64,000 nucleotides of DNA, from the NCBI GenBank assembly GCA_945861675.1, contig CAMAVY010000002.1, positions 1-64,000 of the forward strand, written 5' to 3'. This document shows positions 3,897 through 12,621 of this stretch, piece after piece. The stretch comes from Klebsiella pneumoniae (GTDB lineage: Bacteria; Pseudomonadota; Gammaproteobacteria; Pseudomonadales; Azotimanducaceae). The position numbers and the translations under genes are program-made. How positions within the stretch are numbered: position 1 is the first letter of the stretch; each line of letters opens with the position of its first letter. Under the pieces are notes generated by a model. It did not search any database and was not told where the DNA came from. It saw only the letters and a list, made by a program, of their open reading frames with translations.

Positions 3897-5291
3897 ATGC
3901 ATGGGGTGCTGCCGCTGGAACGACCAATGTCGCGCGCATCGGAGCAGGTGCGAATTCCGCGTGTGTTTGCCTATTGGTCGATGGCGTTGCTGTGTTGCGG
4001 TGCGGTTGTGGAAGGGCATTCGCAATTGTTGGCTTCGATTGCGGTGGTTTATCTCGTCGGTTCGCCGGCGCTCTGGCATGCCTTCGCCACACGGGCGTCG
4101 TCGGGCACCGGTGTGTGTCTTGTCGAGCGGCGGCGCGGCCGGACGGCGCCTTCACCTGACGTGGCGATGACCTGCACGGAGGCGATCATGAGCAGCGCCT
4201 TTTCGGTCTTCGCGTTACCGCTGTCGCTTGCGATCGCTGCGCTGGCAGGGCTGATTCTCGTGCGCGTTGCGACGCAAGGTCGGTCGCAAGGTGCGGCGTT
4301 TCTGCTGGCCTTGGGCGCGGGCGCATTGATTGGCGTGCTCGCCGCACGCAGCTACTCAGGCGCGGCGTGGCCTTCCGTGATGTCCGTCGGGCAGCTGGCG
4401 GCGGTGGCGTTGTGGCTGTTCATGCTTGCGCTTGCGATTGCGTGGGTCGGGAACAATACGCGGCAGGGACTGCGCGTGGCGCATGCGCGGGCCAGCGGCA
4501 TCTCCGCTGACATCGCGTGCCTGGCGCAGCGTCTAGGGCGCTACCTCCCGCCGACCGTGCGGCAAACATTGATGGACAGGGTGCTGCACGATGCGGAGGT
4601 CAGCACCGGCATGTCGGACATCGATCGTCTGCTGGACGTCTCCGCGACGCGACATGTCTCGCAGCGGCGTTGGTTGACGGTGTGTTTCTCGGACATTGTT
4701 GGCTTCACGGCAATGACGGAGCGGCTGGAACCGGAGGAAGTGTCCGTCTTGCTCGATGCCTACCAGCGCGAAGTGTCGACGGCGGTTGCAGTGCACGGTG
4801 GCACGCTGGACAAATTCCTTGGCGATGGCGCGATGGTCATCTTCGGCGACGGGGAACATTCGGATCGGCATGCAGATGCAGCCGCAGGCGTGCGCATGGC
4901 AATCGCGCTGCAGGCGGCGATGTCGGGCCTGAATGCCCGACTCTCGGCGATGGGCATTCGCGTCGGGATGCAGCTGCGAATCGGCGTCGCATCGGGCATC
5001 TGCACGGTGGGTGATTTCGGTAGCGATGATCGATTGCACTACACGGCGCTGGGTCGAGCGGTGAATCTCGCCAGCCGGCTTGAGAGTGCAGCAGGGCCGG
5101 GTGAGATTCTGCTCGCTGAGTCCGCCGCTGATCTTGTCGCGGGTGAGTTGGCTTGCGATCGCGCGGGTGAGCTGCAGGTAAAAGGAATCACCTGGCCGGT
5201 CGCCGTATACACGCCGCGCCGGCGTCGAGCTCTGGAGAGCGACTCGCCGTTCTCAGGGGATTGGCCCGCATTGGCCGTCGTGCCCCAATGA
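3897..5291 (+). CDS. membrane-anchored class III adenylate/guanylate cyclase
   Basis: Several N-terminal hydrophobic helices. C-terminal cyclase homology domain (FSDIVGFTAMTE...LDKFLGDGAMVIFG...LRIGVASGICTVGDFGS...ALGRAVNLASRLESAA). Start uncertain, alternatives at ~4165 and ~4189. Confidence 0.7.
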   Translation: MHGVLPLERPMSRASEQVRIPRVFAYWSMALLCCGAVVEGHSQLLASIAVVYLVGSPALWHAFATRASSGTGVCLVERRRGRTAPSPDVAMTCTEAIMSSAFSVFALPLSLAIAALAGLILVRVATQGRSQGAAFLLALGAGALIGVLAARSYSGAAWPSVMSVGQLAAVALWLFMLALAIAWVGNNTRQGLRVAHARASGISADIACLAQRLGRYLPPTVRQTLMDRVLHDAEVSTGMSDIDRLLDVSATRHVSQRRWLTVCFSDIVGFTAMTERLEPEEVSVLLDAYQREVSTAVAVHGGTLDKFLGDGAMVIFGDGEHSDRHADAAAGVRMAIALQAAMSGLNARLSAMGIRVGMQLRIGVASGICTVGDFGSDDRLHYTALGRAVNLASRLESAAGPGEILLAESAADLVAGELACDRAGELQVKGITWPVAVYTPRRRRALESDSPFSGDWPALAVVPQ

Positions 5292-6603: not shown

Positions 6604-6632
6604 AAAAAAACGCCGGGCTTTTGGCCCGGCGT
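6604..6632 (-). terminator. Rho-independent terminator read on the minus strand, downstream of small peptide gene A
   Basis: GC stem CGCCGGGC-TTTT-GGCCCGGCG. Followed by TTTTTTT on the minus strand, A7 on the plus strand. Could also serve hemE weakly. Confidence 0.5.
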
Positions 6633-6688
6633 TGGCCGCATGTTGAGCGACCGTACGGGGAGGACTGTGCATCAGGGCCAGGCCGGGC

Positions 6689-6772
6689 TCAGCTGAGGAA
6701 GGTCAGGATGAGGCCATAAGAAGTAGCGACGGCAATCGTTGCGCTGATGAGAACTGTGGTGAAACGATCCAT
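6689..6772 (-). CDS. 27-aa hydrophobic small membrane peptide, paralog A (MDRFTTVLISATIAVATSYGLILTFLS)
   Basis: ATG start with AAGGTAACA RBS-like sequence. Single predicted TM helix. Two paralogs nearby with ~75% nucleotide identity. Terminator downstream. Divergent from the LysR gene. Confidence 0.55.
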   Translation of the reverse strand: MDRFTTVLISATIAVATSYGLILTFLS

Positions 6773-6800
6773 GACTGTTACCTTTGGTTGCGGTTTATGT

Positions 6801-6815
6801 GTTACGTAAAGTAAC
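6801..6815. promoter_or_regulatory. Inverted repeat GTTAC-N5-GTAAC (GTTACGTAAAGTAAC), putative operator upstream of peptide A in the lysR-peptide intergenic region
   Basis: Palindrome ~35 bp upstream of the peptide A start. Contains a T-N11-A LysR-type motif (TTACGTAAAGTAA). The same arms recur upstream of paralog C. Confidence 0.45.
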
Positions 6816-6939
6816 GCTTGCGGTAGCAGTCGCCAAGTGAGAAGTTTGCGTTTCGGCGTTGCGTGATTGCGTATCGCCACGGAGCAGCACCCTTCCTCGC
6901 AAGGGTCCAAGTGCGGGCGCACCACCTGAGGCACACGAG

Positions 6940-7848
6940 ATGACACGGCTGGATTGGGAAGATCTGAAGGTCTTCGTGGCGCTGGCGCGTGGTGGCTCTA
7001 TGCGGGCGGCCGGCTCCGAGTTGGGTATTCACGCGTCGACCGTGGCGCGCCGTCTCGAACAACTGGAGAAAAGGCTTGGTACCCGTCTCTTCGATCGTGG
7101 TGGTCTTGCGCTTACGTTGACCATGAGTGGGGAGGAGTTGCGCGGCTATGCGGCTCGGGTCGAACAGGAGATCGAAAGCCTGGAGTTGCATCTCTTCGGT
7201 CGTGACGATCGGATGGCGGGGCCACTGAGGCTGAGCTTGCCCGACGTGGTTGCCACGCCGTTCCTGCTCGAAGACGTTGCGCGCTTCGCAGCCCTGTATC
7301 CGGATATCTCCATCGAACTGCTGCCGTCCTACGAGGTTGTGGATCTGGCCAAGCGACAAGCCGACGTGGCCATTCGCGTCACGACAACCCCGCCTGAGCA
7401 TCTTGTAGGCCGAAAGCTCGCCAGCTTTGCGATGAGCGTCTATGCCTCGCCAGCGTATCTTGAGACGCATGACCCCATCGGCGCACCCGGAAAATGTGCC
7501 TGGCTCGGATGGGGTACGGACACCCTGATCGATGAGCGTGCGCTTGCCTGGTTTCCCGGCGTACCGGTGAAGACGTTGGTTCGCAATGTGCCGTTGCAGG
7601 CTTCCGCCGCTCGGGCCGGCCTGGGCATGGCCGTGTTGCCTTGCGGCGTGGGGGATCCAGATAAAGGATTGGTGAGGGTCCCGCCAGCTCAGGCGGTCAA
7701 TGGTGGTGATCTCTGGGTGCTTACGCACCCTGAATTGCGTTCGGCGGCACGCATACGCGCCTTCCTGGAGTGTTGCACTCAGTCGTTCCGAGCAAATCAG
7801 GCGGCGATGATGGGCGGTCTGAACGAGTTCGAGATAGCCCCGGCCTGA
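6940..7848 (+). CDS. LysR-family transcriptional regulator
   Basis: N-terminal HTH (MTRLDWEDLKVFVALARGGSMRAAGSELGIHASTVARRLEQLE). C-terminal LysR substrate-binding domain. Divergent from peptide gene A. Confidence 0.85.
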   Translation: MTRLDWEDLKVFVALARGGSMRAAGSELGIHASTVARRLEQLEKRLGTRLFDRGGLALTLTMSGEELRGYAARVEQEIESLELHLFGRDDRMAGPLRLSLPDVVATPFLLEDVARFAALYPDISIELLPSYEVVDLAKRQADVAIRVTTTPPEHLVGRKLASFAMSVYASPAYLETHDPIGAPGKCAWLGWGTDTLIDERALAWFPGVPVKTLVRNVPLQASAARAGLGMAVLPCGVGDPDKGLVRVPPAQAVNGGDLWVLTHPELRSAARIRAFLECCTQSFRANQAAMMGGLNEFEIAPA

Positions 7849-7885
7849 CCAGCTCGCGTCAGGCCGTCGAGGCCAGCGCTTGAGT

Positions 7886-7969
7886 TCAGGTCAGGAAGGT
7901 CCATGCCGTGAATAGCGAGATCGCGCCAGCCACCGATGCGCCGATGAGTGCGTTGGTAAATCGATCCAA
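7886..7969 (-). CDS. 27-aa hydrophobic small membrane peptide, paralog B ((f)MDRFTNALIGASVAGAISLFTAWTFLT), TTG start
   Basis: AGGAGA RBS 5 nt upstream of TTG. Same length as paralogs A and C, N-terminal xDRFT and C-terminal TFL(S/T) conserved. GTTACG half-site upstream. Confidence 0.45.
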   Translation of the reverse strand: MDRFTNALIGASVAGAISLFTAWTFLT

Positions 7970-8183
7970 GATTTTCTCCTGAGCAGGGCCTGGGTTTGCC
8001 GTGGTTACGTCTGAGCGGGTCACATCTGCGTGGATGCGAGGTCAGCGTAGTTGTCAGGAGGGAGTGTGCTGGTGGGGGATATGAGAAGCGGGTCAAGAAT
8101 GCGGAAAACGGTCGGCGAAGGGCTGCAGATCAAGTTTCGTTGAGCTGCGGCACCTTCGCCGCCGTGTGCGCCGCGCGCACCCT

Positions 8184-8267
8184 TTACGACAGGAAGGTCA
8201 GGAGGGTGGTGAGCGAGATGCCGATGGCAATCGTGGCGCTGATCAGGATGGTGGTGAAGCGATCCAT
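8184..8267 (-). CDS. 27-aa hydrophobic small membrane peptide, paralog C (MDRFTTILISATIAIGISLTTLLTFLS)
   Basis: ATG start, GAGGTAACA RBS. Nucleotide-level similarity to paralog A. Palindrome GTTAC-N5-GTAAC ~30 bp upstream. Confidence 0.55.
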   Translation of the reverse strand: MDRFTTILISATIAIGISLTTLLTFLS

Positions 8268-8294
8268 TTGTGTTACCTCAAGTACGTTGTTGGT

Positions 8295-8309
8295 GTTACT
8301 TAAGGTAAC
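8295..8309. promoter_or_regulatory. Inverted repeat GTTACTTAAGGTAAC, putative operator upstream of peptide C
   Basis: Same GTTAC/GTAAC arms and spacing as the element at 6801-6815, in the equivalent position relative to the start codon. Confidence 0.4.
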
Positions 8310-8599
8310 GGTGTGTAGAAGATTCACCAAGCGCAATTTTCGCGACGCACCATCGCATAAATGCGCACACCTCTTGAGCTGCGCGCGGCGATCTGTTGAT
8401 GGACCGGTTCGCCTGTGTGTCTTCCAGAAACCCTGCCTTGGTCGAGGCGTACACGATCATCGCAATCGTTCCCGGTCGATTCGATGCTGTCTGGGCAGCA
8501 CCGTCGCATCCAGACCACTCGATCGCTTCATGGCGGGCATGACGCGATCTCAATGCACCGATCCCGATATCACCGCCCAAGAGACACTGCGCTCGAGGT

Positions 8600-8960
8600 G
8601 ATATGTCAATGACTGCGTTCACCGCCGCGATGCTCATGCCCGGGCGCAGGCTCTCGCAGACCATGGCGAAGACGCCGAACAGCAGGCCGAACAGGGTGAT
8701 CTACAGCACCGCTTGCCAGAGCTCTGATAGCCGTGCGTCACCCCGAGCAGCAGCGCTTGCAGGATGAGCCCGACAGGAGCGCTGCGCACCAGCGCGCCGA
8801 ACTGTTTCTGCAGATGACCGCTGAACGTAAGTTCCTCGATGAACCCGGCGCTGACGGAGATCCGGATCCAGTTCGGGACAGGGCTTGCAGCTGCCCTGGA
8901 AACTCGTTGGCCGGGAGCCGTCGTACGAGAGCCTGCTCCAACTAAGTGAGTTGCGTCAAA
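8600..8960 (-). pseudogene. Remnant of a CPBP (CAAX protease / Abi bacteriocin-immunity family) intramembrane metalloprotease gene
   Basis: Minus-strand translation gives ...SAGFIEELTFSGHLQKQFGALV...LLLGVTHGYQ (CPBP motif 1 EExxFRG with R>S, and motif 2 FxxxH). Reading frame then breaks. N-terminal part missing at the vapC boundary. Confidence 0.35.
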
Positions 8961-8999
8961 GTGGAGACGCGGGCTCTCATGTACGTCTCGTATTCGCGT

Positions 9000-9422
9000 T
9001 CAGGCGCGCACTGGAAGCGCAACGAGGGGTACGAGCTTCAGGCGTCGCGCCCGCCGAGCGAACCGGCGGTCGTCGAATGTCACAAGCTGGTCGCAGTTGC
9101 GACTGCACGACCAATGCAGCGCATCGGCGAAGTCGAACCCCTGTTGATGCAGCGCGGCCGCGTCCTGGACGGCCTCCCAACGGTCAACGGTGACGTGCGG
9201 CATTCCGATGAGATTCGCAATCACATCGCAGAATTCTGCTGGCGTTGACTGGTAGAACCCGCGCATCACCCACTCGAACTCAAGGATGACACTCAGTGGG
9301 ACGAAGACTGCGTCTGATTCGAGCATGACCCGACGGGCGAGCGGGCGTTGTTTCGCTGCCTCTGGGTCCTGCGGGTCGTCGCAATAGAACCGCGCCAACA
9401 CGTTAGTGTCGACCGCGATCAC
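9000..9422 (-). CDS. vapC: PIN-domain ribonuclease toxin VapC
   Basis: (M)IAVDTNVLARFY...PIN-domain acidic residues. GTG start overlapping the vapB stop (GTGA). Confidence 0.8.
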   Translation of the reverse strand: MIAVDTNVLARFYCDDPQDPEAAKQRPLARRVMLESDAVFVPLSVILEFEWVMRGFYQSTPAEFCDVIANLIGMPHVTVDRWEAVQDAAALHQQGFDFADALHWSCSRNCDQLVTFDDRRFARRARRLKLVPLVALPVRA

Positions 9423-9676
9423 GGTTTCCGGGACCTCCGAAGCGACGCTGCGGCGTCGAAATCCATCAGCCGTCGAGGCCTTGTGGCTCGCTTGACCTTC
9501 ACCATTCCGTAGCCGGCCGCGGGATCTGTGGGCGGGACGCGCCGCCGGATCACCAGCCGAATGACACCGCCTTCATCCACGAACTCGACCTGCGTGCCGG
9601 GCGTGAGCTCATACCTCGCGCGTATTTCCGCCGGGATGATGATCTGTCCCTTTGCGGTGAGCGTCGCCGCTGCCAT
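9419..9676 (-). CDS. vapB: AbrB/MazE-type antitoxin VapB
   Basis: 85 aa. SpoVT/AbrB-like swapped-hairpin N-terminus (AKGQIIIPAEIRARYEL). AGGAG RBS. Directly upstream of and overlapping vapC. Confidence 0.75.
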   Translation of the reverse strand: MAAATLTAKGQIIIPAEIRARYELTPGTQVEFVDEGGVIRLVIRRRVPPTDPAAGYGMVKVKRATRPRRLMDFDAAASLRRSRKP

Positions 9677-9699
9677 CGGTGCGACTCCTGAATTGTGGG

Positions 9700-10560
9700 C
9701 GGAAGAGTAGCACGGCTTACCTAGTAAGCGACCACGTGATCGGCGGAGGTGTCGACCTGGAGCGCTTCGGGCCGCTGCCGCGGATAAAGCGAATGCCTGC
9801 GTCGCACGTGGCGCAGGATCCGGATGCTGAAACTGCCGACGCGCACCCTACGACTGCACCACCTCGAACCTCGTGCCCGGGCTGCCACCTACTTCCAGTT
9901 CGCAGTTGCCGTAGGCTTCGCGCGTCGCATAGCGCGTCGTTGCGTCGAAAGGAAGCTGCGCGTAGCCGCGATCACAGCGCAACCTGAGCGTCGCCACTCT
10001 GCCTTCCAGCAGGCGGAGACGACGAAGCGGCGTTTCAGCAACGGGAGCAGCCACGCGCGGTTGTCGGACAGCTTGCCCGCCGTCTTGAACCCGCGCGCGT
10101 CGGTGGCGAGCAACGCGAGCTCCTCGTTCAGCCTCAGGTTTGCGGGCAGGGCGCGCAGGTTCGGGTCCAGTTGGGCGAGCGTAGCCCGTGCGCGCCCGAG
10201 GTCCTGACGCCTCGCGTGCAGCCGCAACAGCATCTCTAGCGCGGCGCGTCGGATGGACTGCGGTAGCGCGTCGCCGTAGATCTGCCCTTGCAAGGCGCGT
10301 TCGAACACTTCCACCTGTTGTTGCTCGCTGCCCCAGCGCCCGGCGAAGTACGCCTCCGTGAAGGAGACGTACACACCCTCGTCGAACGTCCGGGCGCGCA
10401 GATCTGCAATAGCGCGCTCGGCTTCGGCGCGATCGCCCGGATCGATGGCACCGGCTTGCTACGCCATATTGCAGGCGAAAAGCGTACGCGGCACATCCAA
10501 TCCAGCGCGCTCGCCGTCTATGCGGGTTCGCCGGACCAGCGGTTGATGGCGATGGCCTGT
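9700..10560 (-). pseudogene. Degraded remnant of a BTAD/SARP-like (TPR-containing transcriptional activator domain) regulator gene
   Basis: Minus-strand frames give ...IDPGDRAEAERAIADLRARTFDEGVYVSFTEAYFAGRWGSEQQQVEVFERALQ...LEMLLRLHARRQDLGRARATL..., interrupted by stops and frameshifts. No intact ORF >161 aa. Confidence 0.3.
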
Positions 10561-10950
10561 GGTTGCCCGAGCTGATCAGCTACGAGGCGGAACGCGACCC
10601 AGGCATCTCACGTGCCGTGTCGCTTGGGAAGCGGAGCACCGGGCTCGCTAGGATTGTTGGTGGGACGAAATCAGCCGTCGCCTGGGCGGTGCTCATCTAG
10701 CGCGGCGCCGAGTCCATGGTTGTCTTTTCCGCCGGCGCCGCTGCGGCGTGTGCCGCTCGACCGGCGCAGTCCAGCGCGCTGCAGCTGGCGGGTCTCGATG
10801 CGGCGGACGACCACCTCAAGGCAGCGGCTGAGTGCCTTCGGGGCGCGCGGCGAAGAGCATGCGCAGCGGCCAGGCGAAGCTCAGAACCCACTGCCGGACA
10901 GGCACCTGGGAATGACCTGGACGATGAGATGCGCGGCGCTCCGGCTTCAG

Positions 10951-12621
10951 CTAGTCGGTGGTCACTGCGCCGAGCGATGCCGACGACACCTGCTTCGCAT
11001 ACTTCCCAAGCAAGCCGCGTGTCGCATAGGGCGCTGGGCGAGTCCATGCGTCGCGGCGCCGGGCCATCTCTTCGTCGGAAACCCCGACGGTGACCTGATT
11101 GTTCTGCGCATCGATGGTGATGGGATCGCCATCCTGCAGCAGGGCGATGGGCCCGCCGTCGAAGGCTTCGGGTGTGACGTGCCCGATCACGAACCCGTGA
11201 GAGCCACCTGAAAAACGCCCATCGGTGAGCAGCGCAACGTCCTTTGCGAGCCCGCGCCCGTTGATCGCGCTCGTCGGCGACAGCATCTCGCGCATGCCTG
11301 GCCCGCCACGCGGCCCCTCATATCGAATCACGACCACATCGCCTTTTTTCACGTCGCCTGCAAGCACAGCCTGTAATGCGGCCTCTTCGCCGTGGTAACA
11401 GCGCGCGTGCCCCGAGAACGTCAGACCTTCGTTGCCCGTGATCTTGGCAACTGCGCCGCCCGGGGCCAGGTTTCCGTACAGCACCACAAGGTGGCTGTCC
11501 TTCTTGATCGGTGCGGAGAGCGGCCGAATGATCTGCTGCCCATCGGGATAGGGCGCAACGTCAGCAAGGTTCTCAGCCAGGGTCTTGCCGGTGACCGTCA
11601 TGCAGCCGCCGTGCAGCAGACCTGCGTCGAGCAACGTCTTCATCAACGGCTGGATGCCACCGATGTCTATCAGTTCACTCATCGCATACTTGCCGGCCGG
11701 CCGCATGTCCGCCACCACCGGAACGCGCTTACCGATGCGCGTGAAATCGTCGAGCGTCAGCGGGATGCCTGCTTCGTGCGCAATCGCCAGTAGATGCAGC
11801 ACTGCATTCGTTGAGCCTTCCAGCGCGATCACCGTGGTGATGGCATTTTCGAAGGCCTCGCGGCACAGGATGTCAGAGGGACGAATGCCGCGCGCCAGCA
11901 GGTGATGCACCGCCGCGCCCGCGTTGTAGCTGTCGCGGCGCTTCTGCTCACCGACCGCTTCCTGGGCCGAGCTGTTGGGCAGGGACAGCCCCAACGCTTC
12001 TATCGCTGACGCCATGGAGTTGGCGGTGTACATACCGCCACACGAACCTGCGCCGGGAATGGCCGTCGCTTCGATCTCGCGCAATTCCGTGGCCGAAATG
12101 CGCCCGGCAGAAAAAGCACCGACGGCTTCGAACACACTGATGACGTCGCGCCGCTCCTTGCCCAGTTGAATGGTGCCGCCATAGACGAATACCGCTGGCC
12201 GGTTGAGCCGCGCAATCGCCATTGCGCAACCCGGCATGTTCTTGTCGCAACCGCCGATGGCCACGAAGCCATCGAAGCCTTGTCCGGCCACAACCGTCTC
12301 AATGGAGTCAGCGATCACTTCGCGTGACACCAGCGAATAGCGCATGCCTGGTGTCCCCATCGCGATCCCGTCAGCGATGGTGATGGTGTTGAAGATCAGG
12401 CTCTTTGCGCCACTCTCGTCGACGCCCATCGCGGCGGCTTCTGCCAGCGCATTGATGTGCACGTTGCAGGGCGTCAGATTGCTCCAGGTCGAGGCGATGC
12501 CAATCTGCGGCTTCTGGAAGTCGGCATCGCTGAACCCCACGGCGCGCAACATGGCCCGGCTTGGAGCCTGCTCTACGCCGTCGACGACAACGGATGAATA
12601 ACGACGGCGTTCGTCGGCCAC
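10951..12621 (-). CDS. ilvD: dihydroxy-acid dehydratase (short ~557-aa IlvD/EDD-family form)
   Basis: [35 protein letters not shown] and CDKNMPG motifs. GTG start at 12619-12621 with AAGGAG RBS lying inside the argA 3' end. The track ATG at 12912 would give an implausible ~96-aa extension. Confidence 0.85.

Follow-up and report, generated by a model that had tools for sequence, protein, structure and literature searches.

The window analysed here, i.e., the whole stretch of 64,000 nucleotides (nt) at positions 1 to 64,000 of contig CAMAVY010000002.1, contains a small locus in which a gene for a LysR-type regulator is flanked by three minus-strand open reading frames (ORFs) of 27 codons each, here named pepA, pepB and pepC (A, B and C in short; Table 1). 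Comparison with related loci indicates that A, B and C are translated protein-coding genes under purifying selection. On balance, we regard it as fairly probable that they represent a new, lineage-restricted family of LysR-linked, 27-residue, single-pass inner-membrane micro-proteins, which would have arisen from the signal-peptide end of the regulator's target gene. Regarding their role in the cell, we infer that they act as LysR-controlled single-pass membrane micro-proteins.

An earlier note on this DNA had reported three minus-strand ORFs of 27 amino acids (aa), and their coordinates, strand and translations are all correct. The three peptides have the pattern MDRFT…TFL[ST] in common and share 13 invariant residues out of 27, while the ORFs are 62–70% identical to each other at the DNA level. 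For the pair A and C, the identity over the ORF amounts to 70%, and not to about 75% as given before. Each ORF is preceded by a ribosome-binding site (RBS), as had been proposed, but the three Shine-Dalgarno sequences had been listed in the wrong order and are assigned in Table 1. A six-frame motif scan of the window returned no further copy of the peptides.

To compare these ORFs across lineages, we used as relatives metagenomic contigs encoding either the extended versions of the ORFs (see below) or orthologues of the LysR protein and of ilvD. With respect to the LysR protein of the window, the closer relatives are 86% (L161), 89% (L002–L011), 90% (L164), 97% (L162/163) and 98% (L165) identical; L002–L011 come from freshwater samples. 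All peptide genes covered by these contigs were found, at an unchanged position and with exactly 27 codons: pepA in L002, L161, L162/3, L164 and L165, pepC in L002–L011, L162/3 and L165, and pepB, among others, in L002, where it starts with ATG. The peptide genes of a further locus, L166, also have exactly 27 codons. Such a conservation of both position and length across independent metagenomic contigs excludes chance ORFs. Moreover, the substitutions observed in the peptide ORFs are biased towards third codon positions and include no indels. The ratio of non-synonymous to synonymous divergence (dN/dS) ranges from 0.13 to 0.21 for pepA, for which synonymous divergence (dS) is saturating, and from 0 to 0.19 for pepB. 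Between the window and its closest relative (L162), pepB has accumulated five synonymous and no non-synonymous changes, and B and C taken together seven and none (Fisher p = 9e-5), whereas Fisher tests of the window vs. L002 yielded p = 1e-3 for A and p = 2e-5 for B. In the latter comparison, the ORFs and their leaders form conserved islands, and the spacer between C and B is divergent in sequence and in length (215 vs. 416 nt). Strict length and purifying selection thus bear out the idea of real duplicated genes that the earlier note had put forward.

Gene callers had recorded pepC only as over-extended ORFs of 47 and 60 aa (P0002 and P0001), and public protein collections contain the peptide genes solely in the form of ORFs wrongly extended to 47, 60 and 75 aa. 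On the opposite strand, a 201-aa ORF (7996–8601, plus strand) has been annotated as a gene in the source contig (L001 2692–3297). This ORF is antisense to pepC and to the C–B spacer, has no Pfam match, and the underlying DNA shows no conservation in L002, be it in length or in sequence. This is probably an erroneous call masking the real mini-genes.

The nine distinct peptides from LysR-linked loci are built on the same plan: they start with M-D-R-F-T, continue with about 22 uncharged residues, mostly hydrophobic or small, and end with T/I-F-L-[S/T/Q]. The two peptides of L166 conform to this plan, with MDRFT or MNRFT at the start and H or S at the end. Mean Kyte-Doolittle hydropathy over residues 4–26 is comprised between 1.4 and 1.9. 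Charges are confined to the N-terminal MDR, which, by the positive-inside rule, suggests that the N-terminus lies inside. Small residues are always found at positions 10, 14 and 18 ([S/G]10, A14, [S/G/T]18), so that one face of the helix is lined by small residues, a type of surface used in helix–helix packing. From this design, the peptides would insert with their N-terminus inside and may pack through the [S/G]10-A14-[S/G/T]18 face, either with each other or with a partner membrane protein. The earlier note had matched them to no named small-protein family, and the same holds for Pfam and NCBIfam (no match at or near curated cut-off), for PADLOC (no match) and for the chains of the PDB (best match E = 2.2). 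A literature search on the peptide motif, or on the inverted repeat described below in combination with LysR, found nothing relevant.

The product of the regulator gene carries both an HTH_1 domain (PF00126, E = 6e-17) and a LysR_substrate domain (PF03466, E = 3e-24), in agreement with the LysR-family gene divergent from A that had been described, and it scores below every NCBIfam equivalog cut-off (best: YafC, with 99 bits vs. a cut-off of 470). Upstream of A and C, as stated in the earlier note, lies the inverted repeat GTTAC-N5-GTAAC (dyad 1), which in the case of pepA is a candidate high-affinity LysR site. The window contains these two matches only, even when one mismatch is tolerated, for 0.24 expected by chance, and pepB has no dyad but a mere GTAAC remnant. 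A second, imperfect dyad (GCAAC/GCCAC/CGYAC-N5-GTAAC) is found 22–24 base pairs (bp) downstream of dyad 1, centre to centre, and its right arm and the AGG before it make up the RBS, both in A and C and in the target gene of the relatives. In pepA, this dyad 2 is kept in all A orthologues, as well as in the 110-aa targets of L037, L038 and L167 (see below). A strong dyad accompanied by a weaker one two helical turns away, with a T-N11-A spacing, is the layout expected for a LysR tetramer.

The distribution of the repeat follows that of the regulator. GTTAC-N5-GTAAC is found beside LysR orthologues of 47–98% identity, including the distant orthologues of L037 and L038 (full-length; 64–66%), L167/168, L169/170 (52%) and L039/040 (47–49%). 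In distant orthologues, it is usually extended to GTGTTAC…GTAACAC and located upstream of the regulator gene. The 5-base arms of dyad 1 are invariant, whereas its 5-base loop varies among lineages. Finally, in L169/170, where no ORF follows, both dyads are retained at 69 nt upstream of LysR. Because the dyad travels with LysR orthologues, irrespective of the neighbouring gene, and persists in L169/170 in the absence of a target ORF, GTTAC-N5-GTAAC very probably serves as operator for the adjacent LysR, which supports the LysR switch on the palindrome envisioned in the earlier note, and pepA and pepC are candidates for a small regulon of this protein. The two contigs without target (dyads at L169 3917–3960 and L170 3196–3240) come from a relative with a GC content of 71% and are syntenic for ilvD–argA. 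After the dyads, they have no peptide gene or 110-aa gene, the next called gene coding for a repeat protein of 2,608 aa, and it looks like the target was lost and the operators retained.

Judging from their sequence elements, A and C each form a short transcription unit of their own, composed of a promoter-like block, two dyads, a leader of about 30 nt with the RBS, 27 codons and a terminator-type hairpin. The promoter-like block is a conserved CTTGGYGA located 17 nt upstream of TACYTT, itself within the left arm of dyad 1 (TTGGCG and TACTTT in pepA), and these would be the −35 and −10 elements, respectively. Downstream of A, the canonical terminator announced by the earlier note is present, as a stem followed by a T7 run, and has an equivalent in L165 and L002; beyond it lies hemE, in convergent orientation. 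That note had given a terminator for A only, yet C is also followed by strong hairpins with a short U tail, of which the first is conserved in L002, and these are a probable terminator or stabiliser. The conserved unit of pepC begins at about 8366, i.e., about 100 nt upstream of the ATG.

The dyads are located 5–45 nt from the start codon of the target, including when the latter is a genuine 110-aa gene, and thereby cover the −10-like TACYTT as well as the RBS and the likely transcription start, which makes repression the most likely mode of control. In such a model, LysR would bind both dyads as a tetramer, sit on these three elements and keep A and C repressed until the complex is altered by a co-inducer. 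This proposed repression differs from activation from the classical −65 position. As in other LysR systems with a divergent target, we observe HTH_1 and LysR_substrate domains, a perfect 5-N5-5 dyad with T-N11-A geometry and, two helical turns closer to the target, a second and weaker dyad. In contrast to them, neither dyad is more than about 45 nt away from the start codon, the second one covers the RBS, and a second candidate regulated unit (C) is located beyond the regulator, at a distance of 1.3 kilobases (kb). A further conserved block, with TTGCGY/RCGCAA-type arms at variable spacing, occurs 55–60 nt upstream of dyad 1 (about 6850–6885 for A and 8340–8372 for C; also in L166). ACGCAA is present three times upstream of A, TGCGCATTTATGCGA is found upstream of C, and the upstream regions of the L166 peptide genes feature a perfect GTTGCGTATACGCAAC and TGCGTGA-N6-TCACGCA. 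It might serve as an additional regulatory site, around −65 relative to the putative promoter.

The distant relatives are informative about the origin of the peptides. The gene that diverges from LysR in L037, L038, L167/168 and L039/040 codes for a protein of 107–110 aa, in which an N-terminal signal peptide precedes a mature part with two cysteines. This protein is devoid of Pfam domain and represented by only six clusters in 5.8 billion proteins. The gene order is hemE, 110-aa gene, LysR in L167/168 and hemE, pepA, LysR in the window, whereas LysR abuts ilvD in L037, so that neither B nor C would fit between them. Dyad 1, the spacer, dyad 2, the GGTAACA RBS and the first five codons are common to pepA and the 110-aa genes of L037, L038 and L167. 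Their common leader reads GCAAC-N5-GGTAAC-N3-CATG-[G/A]AYCG, as exemplified by ATGAATCGTTTCACG (MNRFT) vs. ATGGATCGTTTCACC (MDRFT). Beyond about codon 5–8, the similarity is lost, and the mature domain has left no trace in the window. This homology of operator, 5′ untranslated region and first five codons to a secreted-protein gene had been overlooked in the earlier account of the locus. The long form is found in two deeper LysR branches, including the most distant one (L039), and the short form only in the branch of the window; by parsimony over this distribution, pepA derives from the 5′ end of the regulator's original target. The peptides thus probably stem from the signal-peptide end of that gene and were then duplicated, C having presumably been copied with the operators and B without them, both as later copies inserted between ilvD and LysR. 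As a tentative extension of this scenario, to which we would not yet commit ourselves, the secreted 110-aa output may have been replaced, in one uncultured lineage, by a peptide made from its control region and export signal, which then multiplied, with or without the operators, spread (L166) and came under its own purifying selection.

The peptides resemble the Sec signal peptides of the 107–110-aa partners (L037, L038, L039, L167) in having M-[D/N]-R-[F/L]-[T/S] followed by a hydrophobic stretch, and they are homologous to them at the DNA level. They differ in the length of that stretch (about 22 residues) and in the lack of both an A-x-A-type cleavage site and a mature domain. Where a Sec signal peptide has an h-region of 7–15 residues, a cleavage site and a mature domain, we find none of these in the peptides, but an n-region MDR and a stop right after TFL[STQH]. 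One could then ask whether the ORFs are decaying, functionless stubs of the ancestral signal peptide, with only the operators under selection, for the purpose of autoregulation. The homology to the 5′ end of the 110-aa gene, the very narrow distribution of the family and the operators of L169/170, which outlive their target ORF, would all fit. However, decaying stubs would not be expected to keep exactly 27 codons, a C-terminal TFL and synonymous-biased substitutions in several lineages, nor to multiply to three copies (two in L166), all of them equipped with their own RBS and four of the five also with a stable hairpin after the stop. Furthermore, B has no operator and nevertheless shows only synonymous changes relative to L162. 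We consequently deem this explanation very unlikely.

As for the extent of the family, a HMMER search of 1.84 billion representative proteins recovered a single additional true member (P0159, from locus L166), along with two artefacts due to repeat proteins, and the use of a 50-aa extended ORF as the query retrieved two protein clusters only. L166 harbours two tandem 27-codon genes, encoding MDRFTTMLISATIALSISYATILTFLH and MNRFTTVLISATIAVSISYATVLTFLS, the first of which has its own terminator, and the pair lies between a P450 gene and an amidohydrolase-like gene; from this location, it appears that the mini-gene can move or persist outside the LysR locus. Of the artefacts, P0160 (392 aa) includes eight copies of CSTPVGVMDRFT and matched the peptide profile only via MDRFT; it looks like a translated DNA repeat array rather than a relative. 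A metagenome scan for the two dyads returned no family member among the matches listed. Those matches (L041–L160) are mostly low-GC contigs with arrays of GTTAC-N5-GTAACAC or GGTAACAC repeats (e.g., CAGGGTTACCAAAGGTAACACAGGTAACAC…GGTAACACAGGTAAC), which are unrelated to the pep locus and may come from other organisms or phages, as operator arrays or repeat elements.

Several observations weigh against the interpretation of the locus as a LysR-controlled micro-protein family born from a secreted-protein gene. First, when searched for with a strict back-translated peptide pattern, no member was found in 185,579 species-representative genomes, all 25 matches being chance hits in unrelated taxa, which limits the general importance of the family; either the lineage is not represented among these genomes or the pattern is too strict. 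Second, the direction from long to short form is drawn by parsimony from a handful of contigs, and the peptide genes of L166 are away from any visible LysR. Third, a consensus-based promoter scan found no sigma-70 promoter, and the classical LysR activator layout, with a recognition site near −65 and an activation site near −35, is not observed, since the centres of dyads 1 and 2 are only about 36 and 12 nt upstream of the start. The dyads do not occupy −65/−35 of the target promoter, because a promoter downstream of them would start transcription inside the ORF. Fourth, pepC evolves in an unusual way between the window and L002, with a dN/dS of 0.72 and a dS of 0.25, vs. a dS of 1.78 for LysR, and its low dS means that it is under some nucleotide-level constraint beyond what the protein model alone explains. 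Our favoured explanation is a strong codon bias in a highly expressed gene; RNA-level constraint or recombination may be alternatives. For the same pair of sequences (L002 3426–3509 for pepC), dS lies between 1.4 and 1.8 for pepA, pepB and LysR, the pepC leader is almost unchanged, and GC-rich codons are used throughout pepC. Fifth, if dyad 1 is transcribed, its left arm can pair with the RBS, which in C yields a helix of 13 bp (−15.9 kcal/mol, z = −3.8).

This last point raises the possibility that the dyad and the GGTAAC repeat act mainly in the messenger RNA (mRNA), as alternative RBS hairpins, and not as LysR operators. In all A and C genes, the left arm and loop (GTTACYTT) are indeed complementary to ARGGTAAC at the RBS, and one-sided changes maintain the pairing (U-G to C-G, A-U to G-U). 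Yet, compensatory double changes are lacking, the invariant arms making covariation uninformative, the A genes fold no better than shuffled sequences (z from 0 to −1.1), and L038 forms 5 bp only. Similarly, L039/040 keep dyad 1 in front of an ordinary AGGAGA RBS without GGTAAC. Above all, L169/170 keep both dyads with no ORF to regulate, while in L166, the contig of which has no LysR gene, dyad 1 carries a mutation in one arm and dyad 2 no longer has a right arm; for these reasons, the dyads appear to be DNA operators rather than mRNA elements. Considering also that the repeat has a LysR-type T-N11-A geometry and tracks the LysR gene, regulation by mRNA hairpins strikes us as improbable.

Another RNA-centred explanation is that the locus encodes small non-coding RNAs in which the frames are incidental, for instance a pepA transcript ending at 6609–6633. 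The classical −65/−35 layout would indeed put the transcription start inside the ORF, and sub-threshold Rfam matches cover the 3′ region of pepA and its terminator, namely SorX (E = 0.008, 24.9 bits vs. a gathering score of 46.6) and Hrs12. These matches are well below gathering scores and mainly concern the terminator, whereas the third-codon-position bias and the lack of indels are the mark of coding sequences. In addition, the same leader precedes a genuine 110-aa gene in relatives, where translation must start at that very ATG. Of all the alternatives, this one appears to be the least likely.

Returning to the coding interpretation, the closest functional analogues may be the small inner-membrane proteins of less than 50 aa that are under a dedicated transcription factor, such as MgrB, PmrR, MgtS, AcrZ, KdpF and CydX. 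Like the pep peptides, they have one hydrophobic helix, a length of 20–50 residues, their own RBS and a specific regulator, and usually escape gene finders. By analogy, the pep peptides most plausibly work like small membrane proteins of the MgrB/PmrR/MgtS type. They differ from them by the absence of a match to any curated family, by the presence of three paralogues in one locus and by their proposed origin from a signal-peptide end.

The second comparison to consider is with type I toxins, since the earlier note had suggested a type I-toxin-like function. Under this hypothesis, the products would be membrane-damaging peptides akin to DinQ, TisB, Ibs or Hok, kept in check at the RNA level by RBS sequestration and/or antisense RNA, with LysR setting the timing of transcription. 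DinQ is a 27-aa single-transmembrane inner-membrane peptide under LexA plus antisense control (PMC3567139), and the pep peptides match it in size and character (27 aa, hydropathy of 1.4–1.9), as well as in the repression of the gene by a DNA-binding protein, if our proposal for LysR is right. Type I toxin genes (DinQ, TisB, Ibs, Hok, Ldr) are also often multi-copy and intergenic, as are the genes studied here, a hairpin burying the RBS is possible (13 bp in C, 7–8 bp in A and L037), and the low synonymous divergence of pepC could reflect an overlapping antisense gene. Against this, the regulator is of the LysR type and not LexA, there is no sequence similarity to known toxin families and no Rfam match at gathering score, and no antisense RNA gene was detected, the opposite strand having no promoter- or terminator-like signal in consensus-based scans. 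Moreover, the hairpin requires a transcription start upstream of dyad 1, in conflict with the −10-like TACYTT within the dyad, and the leader architecture was inherited from an ordinary secreted-protein gene. The toxin hypothesis is therefore not the one we retain, and we consider it unlikely.

Table 1. Coordinates of the features of the pep locus and of the adjacent segment in the window.
Feature	Position	Strand	Description
pepA (A)	6689–6772	minus	27-codon ORF MDRFTTVLISATIAVATSYGLILTFLS; RBS AAGGTAACA
pepB (B)	7886–7969	minus	27-codon ORF, TTG start, (M)DRFTNALIGASVAGAISLFTAWTFLT; RBS AGGAGA at 7975–7980
pepC (C)	8184–8267	minus	27-codon ORF MDRFTTILISATIAIGISLTTLLTFLS; RBS GAGGTAACA
LysR-type regulator	6940–7848	plus	302 aa; divergent from pepA, convergent with pepB (Pfam)
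Dyad 1 of pepA	6801–6815	minus	GTTAC-TTTAC-GTAAC, perfect, T-N11-A geometry
Dyad 2 of pepA	6777–6791	minus	GCAAC-CAAAG-GTAAC, imperfect; right arm and preceding AGG form the RBS
Dyad 1 of pepC	8295–8309	minus	GTTAC-CTTAA-GTAAC
Dyad 2 of pepC	8272–8286	minus	CGTAC-TTGAG-GTAAC, overlaps the RBS
−35-like block of pepA	6830–6837	minus	conserved CTTGGCGA (alignment of upstream regions)
−35-like block of pepC	8324–8331	minus	CTTGGTGA
Intrinsic terminator of pepA unit	6609–6633	minus	10-bp stem, 8 G-C pairs, T7 tail
Two hairpins directly after pepC stop	8108–8180	minus	short U-rich tail; −46.3 kcal/mol, z = −4.1
PIN-domain gene	9000–9422	minus	
MazE/AbrB-type antitoxin gene	9419–9676	minus	
161-aa ORF	9889–10374	minus	no Pfam match

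Regarding the neighbouring DNA, a segment of 2.6 kb (8367–10951) separates ilvD from the pepC unit. It is absent from L165 (132 bp in its place, in spite of a LysR identity of 98%) and from L002 (157 bp), and is by this comparison a strain-specific insertion, the PIN-domain and MazE/AbrB-type genes of which form a VapBC-like toxin–antitoxin pair. The earlier note had also mentioned a CPBP/Abi remnant next to the peptide genes and, on that basis, a bacteriocin/immunity module. Among the scanned ORFs of the interval 7996–10575, none had a CPBP (PF02517) or Abi domain, and the segment with most of these ORFs is strain-specific and missing from L165, so this candidate was dropped for want of a supporting domain. 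An amino-acid attenuation leader, which the richness of the peptides in T, I, L, S and A and the vicinity of ilvD could evoke, is excluded by gene order: the pepA terminator attenuates nothing downstream, because hemE beyond it is convergent, B is convergent with LysR, and C and B are located downstream of ilvD, not upstream. The window has no ribosomal RNA or transfer RNA gene. Upstream of hemE, a 464-aa protein (3897–5291, plus strand) with a hydrophobic N-terminal half shows, in its C-terminal part, a weak match to the NCBIfam TOMM system kinase/cyclase (E = 1.6e-10, far below cut-off), which suggests a nucleotide cyclase.

The weight of these results is limited by the fact that the family is known from few uncultured lineages. 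Within this frame, the locus offers a cleanly delimited micro-protein family with comparative evidence of selection, and the dyad is a putative operator for a LysR subgroup that is still uncharacterised. Annotation systematically overlooks small membrane proteins, and the pep locus is an example of how they end up as wrongly extended calls. Finally, a micro-protein with a traceable origin bears on how new small genes arise in bacteria: if true, the derivation proposed here would be a clear case, in bacteria, of a micro-protein born by truncation that inherited its regulatory circuit unaltered.

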